DNA from: an uncultured Actinomycetes bacterium
Lineage (GTDB): Bacteria; Actinomycetota; Acidimicrobiia; Spongiisociales; DATADW01
Direction of reading: 5' to 3'
Length of the DNA: 64,000 bases
Assembly: GCA_963780745.1 (NCBI GenBank)
Contig: CAWACT010000010.1
Location: forward strand, 49,318 to 113,317
Shown here in pieces: positions 3,689-54,358 of this stretch. The notes beneath the pieces were generated by a model. That model saw only the letters and a list, made by a program, of their open reading frames with translations. It did not search any database and was not told where the DNA came from. Each line of letters opens with the position of its first letter. Positions within the stretch are counted from its first letter, which is position 1. A program made the translations under genes and the position numbers.

Positions 3689-4678
3689 GTGCCCGAGCCG
3701 CTGGCCGACACCTTCCGCTACCTCCCCGGCCAGCACGTGACATTGCGGGCCATGATCGGGGGCCACGACGTACGCCGCTCCTACTCGATCTGCGCCAACG
3801 CCAACACAGCTCGGCTTCGTGTGGGGATAAAGCGACTCGGGGGAGGCGCCTTCTCCACCTGGGCGGTGAAAGAGCTGCGGACAGGCGACATGCTCGACGT
3901 GATGCCACCGGTGGGCGAGTTCACCATCTCCCCCGATCCCTTGGCGGGACGCCACTACGCCGCCATCGCCGCCGGCTCGGGGATCACACCGGTCCTCTCA
4001 TTGGTATCGACCACGCTCGAATCCGAGCCGGCGAGTCGTTGGACGGTGATCTTCGGGAATCGCTCCTCCCGGACGGTCATGTTTCTCGACGAACTGCAGG
4101 GGCTCAAGGACCGTTACCCCGACCGTCTGCACTTGGTGCACGTGCTCAGCCAGGAGATGCCTGAGGTACCGCTGTTCGCCGGGCGCATCGACCGGGACAA
4201 GCTGGAGAGGCTCTTCGCCACCGTCGCCGATGCCGCAACCGTCGACGAGTGGTTCCTGTGTGGTCCCTTCGAGATGGTGGAGGTTGCCCGTGACATGCTC
4301 GAGGAGCGAGGTGTCGAGCCGAAGTGCATCCACGATGAGCTCTTCTTCGCCGGCCCGCTCGACGTGGAAGCGCTCCCCACCGAGCCGCCGCCGGGTGAAG
4401 GCGCCGTGGCCGTGGAGTTCACCCTGGCCGGACGGAGGTCCGAGGTCCGGATGCGGCCAGAGGACAAGATCCTGGATGCCGCGCTCCGGGTGCGCCGGGA
4501 GCTTCCGTTCTCCTGCAAAGGGGGGATGTGCGCCTCGTGCAAGGCCCGGCTAGTCGAGGGAGAAGTCGAGATGGAGAAGAACTACGCCCTGGTCGACACC
4601 GACCTCGACCAGGGTCTGGTCCTCACCTGCCAGAGCCACCCGCTGACCGATCGCATCGTTCTGGATTACGACGTATGA
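3689..4678 (+). CDS. paaE: Phenylacetate-CoA oxygenase reductase PaaE (FNR-like + plant-type 2Fe-2S); true N-terminus probably upstream, GTG 3603 via frame repair
   Basis: RSYSI flavin motif, GSGITP NAD motif, C-terminal CKGGMCASCKA 2Fe-2S motif; in-frame FHSLRVAEIAPLTDDSVAVTLDV precedes the listed start without a start codon. Confidence 0.8.
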   Translation: MPEPLADTFRYLPGQHVTLRAMIGGHDVRRSYSICANANTARLRVGIKRLGGGAFSTWAVKELRTGDMLDVMPPVGEFTISPDPLAGRHYAAIAAGSGITPVLSLVSTTLESEPASRWTVIFGNRSSRTVMFLDELQGLKDRYPDRLHLVHVLSQEMPEVPLFAGRIDRDKLERLFATVADAATVDEWFLCGPFEMVEVARDMLEERGVEPKCIHDELFFAGPLDVEALPTEPPPGEGAVAVEFTLAGRRSEVRMRPEDKILDAALRVRRELPFSCKGGMCASCKARLVEGEVEMEKNYALVDTDLDQGLVLTCQSHPLTDRIVLDYDV

Positions 4679-5114
4679 GGAACGAGACGGAAGACGGAAG
4701 ACGGAAGACGGAAGTTCCTCTCCGTCCCCCCGCAGGGGGGAAGGGCCCCGCTGCGACAGCAGCGGGTAGGGGGGCTGGCGAACTCCCAACGGTGCTCACA
4801 CCACCCCCTCCGCTCGCTCCGCTGGCGGGATCGGCTCCCCCTCCCGGTGAGGGAGGGGGTTGGGGGGAGGGTGATTGTCCCCGCTCGCCACAGTCACCCC
4901 CTCCGCTCGCTCCGCTCGCGCCTCCCCCTCACCGGGCGAGGCTGAAACCGTTCCGTCCCCCGCAAGGGGGAAGGGCCCCGCTGCGACAGCAGCGGGTAGG
5001 GGGGCTGGCGAACTCCCAACGGTGCTCGCACCACCCCCTCGGCTCGCTCCGCTGGCGGGATCGGCTCCCCCTCCCGGTGAGGGAGGGGGTTGGGGGATGA
5101 TTGTCCCCGCTCGC
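4679..5114 (+). repeat. Mosaic GC-rich intergenic repeat, locus R1: ACGGAAG x4 heptads (4687-4714) plus two ~165-bp direct copies (4721-4889, 4952-5114; period 231)
   Basis: Direct self-comparison; modules recur at 19716-19864, 30631-30985, 47819-47846, 54204-54358. Confidence 0.9.
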
Positions 5115-5127
5115 CAAAGGCACGACC

Positions 5128-5709
5128 ATGGTGAGTTCTGCGCCCGCGGGGCGCAACAGCCGAGAAGACGTGATTCGCGCCGCCGGACGGCTTTTCGCCA
5201 AGGGCTACCACGGGACGTCGATGCGCGACCTCGGTGGCGAACTCGGGTTGTTCGGTTCCTCGATCTACTCCCACGTCGGGTCGAAGCAGGAGCTTCTGGT
5301 AGAGGTGGTCGCCACCGGCGCACAGCTCTTCCAGGAGTCGGCGACCCGCGCCGAGCGGGTCGATGGAGCAGAGCAGCGACTAGCGGCGCTGATCTCGGGC
5401 CACCTCGACGTGGTGCTGGACAGCCTCGACGAGGTGCGGACTTTTCTCAACGAGGCGTCGGCTCTCGAGCCCGAGTACAGGGAGCGCATCATCGCCGCCA
5501 GGGATCGCTACGAGGAGTCGTTCCGACGTGTCCTGCAGCAAGGGATCGAGGAAGGCGCATTCCGCCCCGGTGTCGATCCGAAGCTGGGAGCGATCTTCAT
5601 CCTCTCGATCCTCAACGCCGTCGAGCGCTGGTTCCGACCCGGCGGAAACCTCGACCGGGCTGCGCTGGCCGACGAGATCATGACTTTCGTCCGCAACGGG
5701 ACGGGTTGA
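5128..5709 (+). CDS. TetR family transcriptional regulator (candidate PaaR)
   Basis: N-terminal HTH REDVIRAAGRLFAKGYHGTSMRDLGGELGLFGSSIYSHVGSKQELL; ATG 5128; the listed TTG 5101 start lies inside the repeat. Confidence 0.85.
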   Translation: MVSSAPAGRNSREDVIRAAGRLFAKGYHGTSMRDLGGELGLFGSSIYSHVGSKQELLVEVVATGAQLFQESATRAERVDGAEQRLAALISGHLDVVLDSLDEVRTFLNEASALEPEYRERIIAARDRYEESFRRVLQQGIEEGAFRPGVDPKLGAIFILSILNAVERWFRPGGNLDRAALADEIMTFVRNGTG

Positions 5710-19715: not shown

Positions 19716-19864
19716 GGCGGCGACGAGCGGTGGGGGGTGACCACGCACCGTAGGGAGTTCCCCAGCCCCCCTACCCGCTGCTCCGCAGCGGGGCCCTTCC
19801 CCCCCTGCGGGGGAAAGGACTCTTTCGGCCTTCCGTCTTCCGTCTTCCGTCTCTGCCCTCTCGG
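19716..19864 (-). repeat. Mosaic repeat locus R2 (reverse orientation; heptads 19830-19864 plus hairpin module B)
   Basis: Reverse complement matches R1/R3 module B and ACGGAAG heptads. Confidence 0.85.
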
Positions 19865-26627: not shown

Positions 26628-26639
26628 CCGCCGGTTATG

Positions 26640-26671
26640 AGTACTAAGTACCAAGTACTGAGTACTGAGAC
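26640..26671 (+). repeat. AT-rich heptamer array AGTACTN x4 (plus a degenerate fifth)
   Basis: AGTACT 26640, AGTACC 26647, AGTACT 26654, AGTACT 26661, all read directly. Confidence 0.9.
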
Positions 26672-30630: not shown

Positions 30631-30985
30631 ACGGAAGACGGAAGACGGAAGACGGAAGGCGGAAGTTGGAATCCGTCCCCCCGCAGGGGGGAAGGGACCC
30701 GCTGCGCAGCAGCGGAGTAGGAGGGCTACCGAGCTCCAACGGTGATCGACCCGCGGCCGTCGCACCCTAGGGAGTGAACCAGCCCCCCTCCCCCAACGCC
30801 TCCGGCGTCGGGTACTCCCCCCGCCGGGGGAGGGAAACATTGCTCCGTCCGCCCGCAGGGGGGAAGGGGCCCGCTGCGAAGCAGCGGGGAGGCGGGGATC
30901 GGCTCCCCCTCCCGGTGAGGGAGGGGGTTGGGGGGAGGGTGATTCCCGCCGCTCGCCCCAATCACCCCTCTGCTCGCTCCGGGGA
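30631..30985 (+). repeat. Mosaic repeat locus R3 (heptads 30631-30672, two module-B hairpin units, module C with G4 motif 30919-30939)
   Basis: Direct comparison with R1/R2/R5. Confidence 0.9.
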
Positions 30986-31022
30986 TCGGAAAAAAGGGGC
31001 CCTCAGTTCCGGGTATCGTCCT

Positions 31023-31050
31023 GACCCAGAACCCATGACCCAGAACCCAT
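31023..31050 (+). repeat. Perfect tandem 14-mer GACCCAGAACCCAT x2, ending 7 nt before the DoxX ATG
   Basis: Read directly. Confidence 0.9.
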
Positions 31051-31057
31051 AACCCTC

Positions 31058-47758: not shown

Positions 47759-47818
47759 GGTTGGACGCGGGAAGCCCCCTTTTCGCGGTGGGTCCCACGT
47801 GCCGACACGATCAGCCGC

Positions 47819-47846
47819 CGTCCGCCGTCTGCCGTCTGCCGTCTTC
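47819..47846 (-). repeat. Degenerate heptad array (CCGTCCG, CCGTCTG x2, CCGTCTT), locus R4
   Basis: Reverse complement relates to the ACGGAAG/GACGGAA heptads of R1/R3/R5. Confidence 0.7.
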
Positions 47847-54203: not shown

Positions 54204-54358
54204 AGGAAACGGACGCTAACGGAGTCGGAAGACGGAAGACGGAAGTCCGCTCCCCCTCCCGGTGAGGGAGGGGGTTGGGGGAGGGTGATTTCCGCCGGGA
54301 CCAATCACCCCCTCCGCTCGCTTCGCTCGCGCCTCCCCCTCACCGGGGGAGGCAGCTG
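54204..54358 (+). repeat. Mosaic repeat locus R5 (heptads 54224-54244, module C with G4 motif 54266-54285, hairpin CCTCCCCC-TCACC-GGGGGAGG)
   Basis: Direct comparison with R1/R3; fills the whole gap between two same-strand genes. Confidence 0.9.

Follow-up and report, generated by a model that had tools for sequence, protein, structure and literature searches.

A mosaic, hairpin-forming repeat family of high copy number occupies the paaE-tetR gap in a genus of uncultured Acidimicrobiia

The paaE-tetR gap and its modules

The locus studied here lies in a window of 64 kb, the whole stretch of DNA that was analyzed; positions refer to this window unless a contig is named. Upstream is a gene for a PaaE-type ferredoxin-NAD(P) reductase (3689..4678, + strand; Pfam FAD_binding_6, NAD_binding_1 and Fer2), whose TGA stop is at 4676-4678 and whose orthologues in relatives are 52-97% identical. 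Downstream is a TetR-family regulator gene (5128..5709, +; Pfam TetR_N and TetR_C_24), with its ATG at 5128 inside an ORF of 5101-5709. Direct inspection of the sequence confirmed that a gap of 436 bp separates the two and is occupied by repeat modules, in the order H-A-26mer-C1-D-A-26mer-C1(truncated).

Module H is a heptad microsatellite, (AGACGGA)x4.3, at 4685..4714 (+; TRF score 60, 100% matches). A sequence-only reading of the window had described it as four ACGGAAG heptads at 4687-4714, which is the same array in another register. Its core, GACGGA, is complementary to the TCCGTC at 4721-4726. Module A copy 1 (4721..4797, +) contains hairpin hp1 (TCCCCCC-GCA-GGGGGGA, 4725-4741), hairpin hp2 (CCCGCTGC-GACA-GCAGCGGG, 4747-4766), GTAG-G6 at 4766-4774 and the tail CTGGCGAACTCCCAACGGTGCTC, and it matches our covariance model R1 with E=3.4e-22. 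It is followed by a 26-mer, CACCCCCTCCGCTCGCTCCGCTGGCG (4802..4827, +), which equals the 5' part of module D without the D hairpin and is found three times in the gap, with starts at 4802, 4895 and 5032. Module C1 copy 1 (4828..4893, +) carries the hairpin CCCCCTCCC-GGTGA-GGGAGGGGG at 4837-4859, with GGTGA as its loop, and a G-quadruplex motif, GGGAGGGGGTTGGGGGGAGGG, at 4851-4871. It also holds the 5' arm of a longer inverted repeat (4866-4874) and a spacer with a variable centre (4875-4893). In this inverted repeat, which had likewise been claimed earlier and is present, GGAGGGTGA (4866-4874) pairs with TCACCCCCTCC (4894-4904) across the 19-nt spacer. Module D (4894..4942, +) consists of TCACCCCCTCC, the 26-mer and the hairpin CCTCCCCC-TCACC-GGGCGAGG at 4921-4941, which has one mismatch. 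Then come module A copy 2 (4952..5028, +), a tandem duplicate with 98% identity to copy 1; the third 26-mer (5032..5057, +); and a truncated C1 copy 2 (5058..5114, +), in which the C1 hairpin recurs at 5067-5089 and a 5-nt deletion has removed the fourth G-tract.

Every one of the tight, chained G/C hairpins that the earlier reading had described was found in place. Its two direct copies of about 165 bp (4721-4889 and 4952-5114) were recovered as well: 4727-4866 and 4957-5096 align without gaps at 98% identity with a spacing of 230, and 1-nt indels extend the match. Whether the gap was folded as RNA (z=-3.3) or as DNA (z=-2.3), its fold energy was lower than that of all shuffles. A search of the gap for a sigma-70-like promoter found none, and no terminator-like site, sought as a G/C hairpin with a U-tract, was present within 4679-5127.

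Copy number and grammar of the modules in the genome

The genome to which the window belongs (G000) comprises 3.45 Mb in 12 contigs, with 67% G+C and 78% completeness. BLAST of the gap against it returned 508 matches, which merge into 195 loci and cover about 21 kb. Chance cannot account for the focal repeat given so many matches and loci genome-wide, and the earlier impression of a REP/MITE-like density agrees with these figures. Modules were delimited by the boundaries of whole-genome BLAST matches together with iterated nhmmer profiles. This genome self-comparison, which had been proposed for counting copies and defining modules, gave about 190 clusters with sharp boundaries.

Module A is 77 bp long and reads TCCGTC, the hairpin TCCCCCC-GNA-GGGGGGA, AAGGG, the hairpin CCCGCTGC-GNAG-GCAGCGGG, GTAG-GGGGGG and the tail CTGNCGAACTCCCAACGGTGCTC. 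The nhmmer search found 94 copies of it in G000 and 26 further copies of a paralogous subtype, A2, giving an A-type total of about 120. Module D (109 copies) is made of TCACCCCCTCC, GCTCGCTCCGCTCGCG and the hairpin CCTCCCCC-TCACC-GGGGGAGG; it is a C-rich 26-mer plus a hairpin, rich in C and poor in G. Module C1 (63 copies) consists of the hairpin CCCCCTCCC-GGTGA-GGGAGGGGG, TT and GGGGGGAGGGTGA; the last of these forms a G-rich inverted repeat, bridging a variable loop, with the beginning of the following D. Some of these counts are slightly inflated, because two small contigs, C5 and C6, are 85-98% identical to stretches of C12 (619-644 kb) and C9 (15-33 kb) and are probably co-assembled strain variants.

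All modules were co-oriented in 186 of 189 clusters, and the orientation was mixed in the other 3. Apart from these, modules follow the order H>A>D>C1>D, with one to three C1-D units per cluster. A and A2 also form tail-to-tail doublets of about 170 bp, of which there are 25 among the 120 A-type copies and none at the focal locus. The claim that the same modules occur elsewhere in the 64 kb held. An A module headed by H3, both on the minus strand, lies in a convergent gap at 19746..19850 (-; C10:69063-69167). A longer series at 30631..30968 (C10:79948-80285) comprises H4+ and A+ (30631-30744), A2- (30760-30833), and A+ with C1+ (30844-30968). Finally, H2+, C1+ and D+ are found at 54232..54354 (+; C10:103549-103671).

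History of the locus

Synteny of paaE and tetR is kept across the order. In five other genera (L007, L009-L012) there is no intergenic gap, and the paaE stop overlaps the tetR start. The junction in L009 and L012 is GACGTATGAC, in which the TGA of paaE overlaps the ATG of tetR, and L007, L010 and L011 have the same ATGA/TGATG overlap. Only one genus, represented by six genomes (G000-G005), has a repeat-filled gap, of 207-452 bp. In G000 a relic ATGA is found at 4675..4678 (+), where it serves only as the paaE stop. Relative to other genera, the tetR gene of G000 begins at a new start and encodes 6-9 additional N-terminal residues; most tblastn alignments begin at query residue 7-10. Judged by these sequences, the comparison shows that paaE and tetR ancestrally met in an ATGA overlap with 0 bp between them, and that this junction was opened in the ancestor of the genus. 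A strongly folding spacer of 450 nt would most likely uncouple translation of tetR from that of paaE.

In all six genomes of the genus a heptad array follows directly after the paaE stop, the unit being ACGGAAG, ACGGCAG or ACGGCGG, and the module string at paaE-tetR is different in each species. In G001, whose flanks are 96% identical to those of G000, the gap reads H-H'-spacer-A-D, with no C1 and no duplication. Five other orthologous sites, located on contig C8 of G000, were compared. Most genomes retain the heptad array at these sites, with A, D or A/A2 doublets interchanging beside it, and one A/A2 doublet is inverted between species. These results show that module content has been rebuilt between congeners at paaE-tetR and at the five other sites.

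The two copies of about 165 bp share variants that are private to them, namely the hp2 loop GACA, CGCTGGCG and the spacer core GTCCCCGCTCGCCA; the GACA loop was found in no other copy among the 73 aligned from G000. Since the private variants are common to both copies, a local tandem duplication is indicated rather than two insertions. Shared variants of this kind show that the pair is, as read from the sequence, a tandem duplication of an A/26-mer/C1(+D) unit that is private to G000. Several of the differences between the copies are run-length differences, as might be expected if the assembler had mis-expanded a repeat. However, the copies also differ by substitutions and a 5-nt deletion, the second copy has a different end junction, and the same multi-unit grammar is seen at other G000 loci. 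In addition, the other five genomes of the genus, which stem from independent samples and assemblers, all have a repeat-filled gap at the locus. An assembly artefact is therefore extremely unlikely.

An ORF that couples the two genes through the gap, in the manner of mycobacterial MIRUs, was considered and ruled out. The relic ATG of G000 opens a frame of 141 codons that ends 27 nt before the tetR ATG and in the same frame, but neither frame nor phase is kept in the five relatives. The distance from relic ATG to tetR start, modulo 3, is 0, 2, 0, 1, 1 and 2 in the six genomes; in-frame stops occur in several, and no ORF is conserved across the gap.

A separate observation concerns G004, where a site on contig C13 is orthologous to the A2/A doublet site at C8:164660-164880 of G000. 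This site carries an 824-bp insert that resembles a fragment of a DDE transposase and adjoins a D-like module and a heptad array.

Distribution and conservation of the family

Strong full-length matches to covariance model R1 (E below 1e-15) were obtained only from the six genomes of the genus, and weaker matches from 64 of the 151 genomes of the order. Exact matches to a 20-mer of A came almost exclusively from Acidimicrobiia MAGs of the Microflora Danica and SMAG collections; the only others were three isolated chance matches. This shows that strong presence of the family is confined to a single genus of uncultured soil Acidimicrobiia known from those MAGs. The sequence-only reading had not recognized the family, and neither did the collections that we searched. 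Rfam gave no match in the window at the gathering threshold and only chance-level matches (E>0.2) in 4600-5200, and plasmid and phage collections searched with the family gave none. Within what was searched, the element thus matches no known family.

A related unit, TCGGTCCCCCC-GCA-GGGGGGAAGG...GGTAGGGGGG, is present in another genus. It has a different middle hairpin and forms tandem arrays with a period of 55 or 92; the heptad that flanks these arrays, GTCGCGA, also differs. Across genera, the C6/G6/G6 runs of A are kept and hp2 varies freely. Within the focal genus, the A consensus is identical at 77 of 77 positions in G000, G002, G003 and G005, although their flanks differ by about 15%; it was derived from the top-scoring matches to a model trained on G000 and is to that extent biased towards similarity. 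Conservation extends to unpaired positions, which suggests sequence-specific recognition by a protein. On sequence grounds, a 77-nt consensus shared by four species suggests that this protein would be a conserved trans-acting factor other than a RAYT.

Predicted structure and genomic context

The two-hairpin structure of A is well supported, since 96.3% of its pairs were formed across 41 copies as opposed to 53-65% for slid-partner controls. Three pairs of hp2 show compensatory changes, in 15 cells (U-A to C-G, C-G to A-U and G-C to A-U), and the covariation score of A was reached by none of 500 shuffles. RNAalifold offers an alternative in which the C6 run forms a closing helix with the G6 after GTAG. 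The GTAG itself is nearly invariant and is located after the 3' arm of hp2 (GCAGCGG-GTAG-GGGGGG), so that the opposite strand reads CTAC-stem. Mismatches in the stems are about as often G:T as A:C (19:16 in D and 8:6 in C1), which indicates that neither strand is favoured.

Clusters were assigned to gap classes with a self-trained codon-usage gene map that covers about 82% of the genome, and the resulting counts are approximate. Convergent gaps held 51 clusters (28 expected), divergent gaps 18 (38 expected) and tandem gaps 98 (chi-square p=2e-7). Enrichment in convergent gaps and depletion in divergent ones is the pattern reported for REP, BOX and similar repeats (PMC3049150, PMC3733652). There was no strand bias in the tandem gaps, where 48 clusters were sense and 50 antisense.

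Modules of this kind could be cis-acting RNA elements selected by the host, for example bidirectional terminators without U-tracts, 3'-end stabilizers or attenuators, that set read-through from paa to tetR. Such a role would fit their enrichment at convergent 3' ends and scarcity in divergent promoter gaps, the very stable predicted folds, the compensatory changes that keep the stems and the position of the focal site within a formerly coupled gene pair. However, the 48:50 orientation in tandem gaps and the equal numbers of G:T and A:C mismatches (D 19:16, C1 8:6) speak against it, as do the lack of T-tract terminators, the difference in module content at single sites even between close relatives and the conservation of unpaired positions, which is as strong as that of the stems. 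We consider a selected RNA element of this type quite unlikely. A strand-specific RNA function was ruled out by the absence of both an orientation bias and an excess of G:T over A:C. A role for D as a Rho-utilization site was also rejected, as clusters with only C1 and D in tandem gaps were 10 sense and 14 antisense.

The G-rich runs raise another explanation, namely that the elements are non-B DNA devices (G-quadruplex or triplex versus hairpin) selected for effects on replication, supercoiling or nucleoid proteins. The canonical G4 motif of C1, GGGAGGGGGTTGGGGGGAGGG, has a G4Hunter score of 2.52, is kept in 49 of 63 copies and makes up about a third of the intergenic canonical G4 motifs. The retention of the C6/G6/G6 runs of A across genera while hp2 is free to vary points the same way, as does the rarity of heptad arrays longer than about four units, a feature shared with the G4-forming heptamers of Xanthomonas and Nostoc (PMC4692102). 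Nevertheless, the G-runs double as hairpin arms, and so their conservation is already accounted for. ACGGAAG has only GG tracts, and the second C1 copy at the focal locus lacks the fourth G-tract. It is very unlikely that the elements are such devices.

Search for a mobilizing element

Based on the searches, the earlier statement that there is no transposase and no target-site duplication stands: none was linked to the modules, and no duplication was seen at the six sites compared. The RAYT/Y1 domain (PF01797) was found in none of the six genomes of the genus, with controls positive in 6 of 14 reference genomes. Neither TnpB nor a reverse transcriptase (RVT_1) was found in G000. These absences, which led us to set aside RAYT (six genomes) and TnpB and reverse transcriptase (G000) as mobilizers, are not proof, because the MAGs are 72-93% complete. 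No terminal inverted repeats bound the modules, and no clean pair of empty and filled sites was found.

Self-BLAST of the genome detected no classical multi-copy IS and no IS with module-like ends. Long multi-copy DNA in G000 is limited to DUF222-HNH genes, tuf and the duplicates on strain-variant contigs. DUF222-HNH units of 1.1-1.45 kb are present in at least seven copies, 89-95% identical, on contigs C3, C7 and C12 (e.g. C3:247079-248513 and C3:629268-630613). They were rejected as partners, since their flanks have no consistent link to modules. The encoded proteins look REP13E12-like (motif CRHHHRLKHEAGWKL).

An A module is interrupted, precisely between GGGTAG and GGGGGGCTG, by one IS110-family element of 1478 bp (C12:255367-256844; PF01548, E=2.8e-36). 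REPs are established targets of IS110 elements (PMC1525189, PMC11208160). This element is present in a single copy and has no counterpart in the five congeners, and other IS110 matches lie in low-GC DNA without modules; it was rejected as a mobilizer on this basis. For this element the repeat is a target site; the spread of the repeat is not accounted for by it. Apart from this, a low-GC region at C10:31000-33100, about 16 kb before the start of the window, contains a 37-nt poly-T run and a transposase gene of the IS110 type. Compared with the remainder of the genome this region is foreign in composition, and it may represent either an acquired island or a chimeric join.

It is conceivable that the modules are true non-autonomous transposons, similar to REPINs or MITEs, and that the enzyme, which would act in trans and either copy the modules or cut and paste them, is missing from incomplete MAGs or belongs to a family not recognized. 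High copy number with sharp module boundaries would be expected of these, and the content differs between genomes whose flanks are 96% identical. The A/A2 inverted doublets are REPIN-like, and a primary-sequence consensus that is identical across species with flanks about 15% apart points to recognition by a protein. On the other hand, PF01797 is absent from all six genomes with control genomes positive, and neither TnpB nor reverse transcriptase was found in G000. The multi-copy long repeats are DUF222-HNH genes and tuf, which have no module-like ends, the sole native-looking IS110 is single-copy and absent from relatives, and there are neither TIRs nor TSDs. Transposition of this type is a possible explanation, though an unlikely one.

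Relation to known repeats and preferred interpretation

In being a mosaic of polar, hairpin-forming modules, the family resembles REP/BIME or BOX elements. It does not resemble a MITE, as it has no terminal inverted repeats matching an IS of the host, no TSDs and no IS with matching ends. Several modules in constrained order, with variable internal units and at many extragenic sites, are what is seen in BIME- and BOX-type elements. Like the BIMEs of E. coli and Salmonella, the family forms extragenic, high-copy mosaics of short G/C-rich palindromic units and linker motifs, has two unit subtypes (here A and A2) in inverted pairs, lies mostly after gene ends and has an IS110-family insertion in a unit. 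In contrast to BIMEs, it has a heptad microsatellite as its head, its focal modules are all in direct orientation, the genus has no RAYT, GTAG is 3' rather than 5' of the stem, and there is no sequence similarity.

The BOX element of Streptococcus pneumoniae, boxA-boxB(n)-boxC (PMC3049150), is also composite, with a fixed module order and an internal module in variable tandem number. Its length differs between strains, it is enriched downstream of CDSs, its predicted folds are strong, and no dedicated transposase gene is known for it. However, it is of unrelated sequence and from another phylum, it is AT-rich as opposed to about 67% G+C here, and it has TIR-like ends similar to those of an IS, which the modules lack. 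Mobilization of BOX in trans by the ISSpn2 transposase has only been hypothesized, from TIR similarity (PMC3049150).

REPINs and GTAG-tagged REPs, which are moved by RAYTs (PMC3116915, PMC3733652), share with our family short high-copy palindromes, inverted doublets of about 170 bp (here the 25 A/A2 pairs) and sub-families with compensatory stem changes. The RAYT that defines them was found in none of our six genomes, and the GTAG or CGTC tag that they carry at the 5' end of the stem is on the opposite, 3' side here (GTAG). In a prokaryote-wide survey, GTAG repeats were reported only from Proteobacteria, Cyanobacteria, Chloroflexi and the PVC group, and CGTC repeats only from Proteobacteria, Chlorobi, Bacteroidetes, Spirochaetes and Thermotogae; Actinobacteria are in neither list and are never mentioned (PMC3733652).

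Our full-text literature search found no paper that combines Acidimicrobiia with REP elements. The MIRUs of Mycobacterium tuberculosis are reportedly direct tandem units between operon genes at overlapping stop and start codons, and, in the account of Supply and colleagues from 1997, they are said to carry small ORFs that maintain translational coupling. Our modules also have an actinobacterial host, include direct tandem units of tens of bp and are placed at overlapping stop/start codons. In contrast to MIRUs, the gap is not consistently divisible by 3 in length from one species to the next, the frames contain stops, and no repeat-encoded ORF overlaps the flanking genes. Taken together, the family is a previously undescribed high-copy mosaic of hairpin repeats that is closest in behaviour to BIMEs and BOX, the kind itself being known.

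We favour, with a probability of roughly 0.6, the interpretation that the gap is a local pile-up of lineage-specific, non-coding, hairpin-forming mosaic repeats of the REP/BIME/BOX kind, built from few modules in a fixed 5'-to-3' order. Genome-wide, this is based on copy number and module boundaries, the colinear grammar, the bias among gap classes and the 48:50 orientation in tandem gaps. For the locus, it is based on the ancestral ATGA overlap in five genera versus differing gaps of 207-452 bp in G000-G005 and on the private variants of the two copies. Module swaps, the flipped A/A2 dimer, the 25 tail-to-tail doublets, the compensatory hairpins, the identical A consensus, the IS110 element inside A and a fold energy below that of shuffles also argue for it.

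Since no mobilizing enzyme, TSD or clean empty/filled pair was found, we infer the mode of spread. Modules would spread and turn over at the DNA level by recombination, gene conversion or template switching among copies, and the direct repeats of the 26-mer and the heptads would offer an additional route through unequal or slipped recombination. Copies would be tolerated chiefly downstream of genes. By analogy with REP/BIME and BOX, the focal spacer probably blocks read-through or 3' exonucleases whichever way it is oriented; the hairpins have no U-tracts, and a terminator role is only putative.

This study documents a high-copy mosaic repeat family in Acidimicrobiia, and the locus is a clean natural case in which repeats separated a translationally coupled gene pair (ATGA) and were then rebuilt in every species. 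For annotation, the modules explain assembly breaks in short-read MAGs, spurious ORFs and one repeat-encoded N-terminal extension. That no RAYT was found, that the primary sequence is conserved and that heptads are linked to the modules in a polar way draws attention to what recognizes or moves the modules and to why their polarity to the heptads is fixed.

Heptad arrays

Period-7 arrays number 153 genome-wide, as compared with 17 of period 5, 56 of period 6, none of period 8 and 13 of period 9, and they are seldom longer than about 4.7 units. Among period-7 arrays within 45 bp of a module cluster, 26 were on its 5' side and 1 on its 3' side. Arrays of the ACGG type were co-oriented with the modules in 23 of 23 cases. 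The TCCGTC of module A is complementary to the heptad core GACGGA and is separated from H by a variable spacer of 6-20 nt.

Heptanucleotide arrays are also known from Xanthomonas and Nostoc, where the G-rich heptamer repeats form G4 (PMC4692102). Those arrays similarly prefer about four units, are non-coding and are under-represented between divergent genes. In contrast, the unit here (ACGGAAG) has GG and not GGG, and hairpin modules adjoin the array in a fixed polarity.

We can speculate that the heptad arrays are polar anchors, either landing pads or recombination sites, of a RAYT-independent system that would exchange, invert and amplify hairpin/G-quadruplex cassettes beside genes. This would be consistent with the array persisting beside a gene in most genomes while the cassette is swapped, even at 96% flank identity, and with the position of heptads 5' of the modules (26:1), always co-oriented. 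The complementarity of GACGGA to the TCCGTC that opens module A suggests the same, as does the joint occurrence of heptads and the C6-GCA-G6...GTAG-G6 module in another genus with a different heptad sequence. The proposal is nonetheless a highly tentative one, and we would regard it as doubtful.

Other heptad families were noted in the genome, with the units GGGTTAT/GGGTTCT, AGTACTA, ACGGCAG and GGTAGGT; within the window such arrays are at 26638-26669, 31022-31055 and 47817-47844. Outside the window, at C8:156801-156828 of G000, four ACGGAAG heptads lie inside the 5' end of an ORF resembling UDP-glucose dehydrogenase (MTKTEDGRRKTEEESAVKVAVIGTGYVGL...). At the orthologous site in G001, G002 and G005, the heptads are followed by a module A and a new ATG, and these precede the KVAVIGTG start. 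They create an upstream ORF that ends in an ATGA overlap in G002 and G005.
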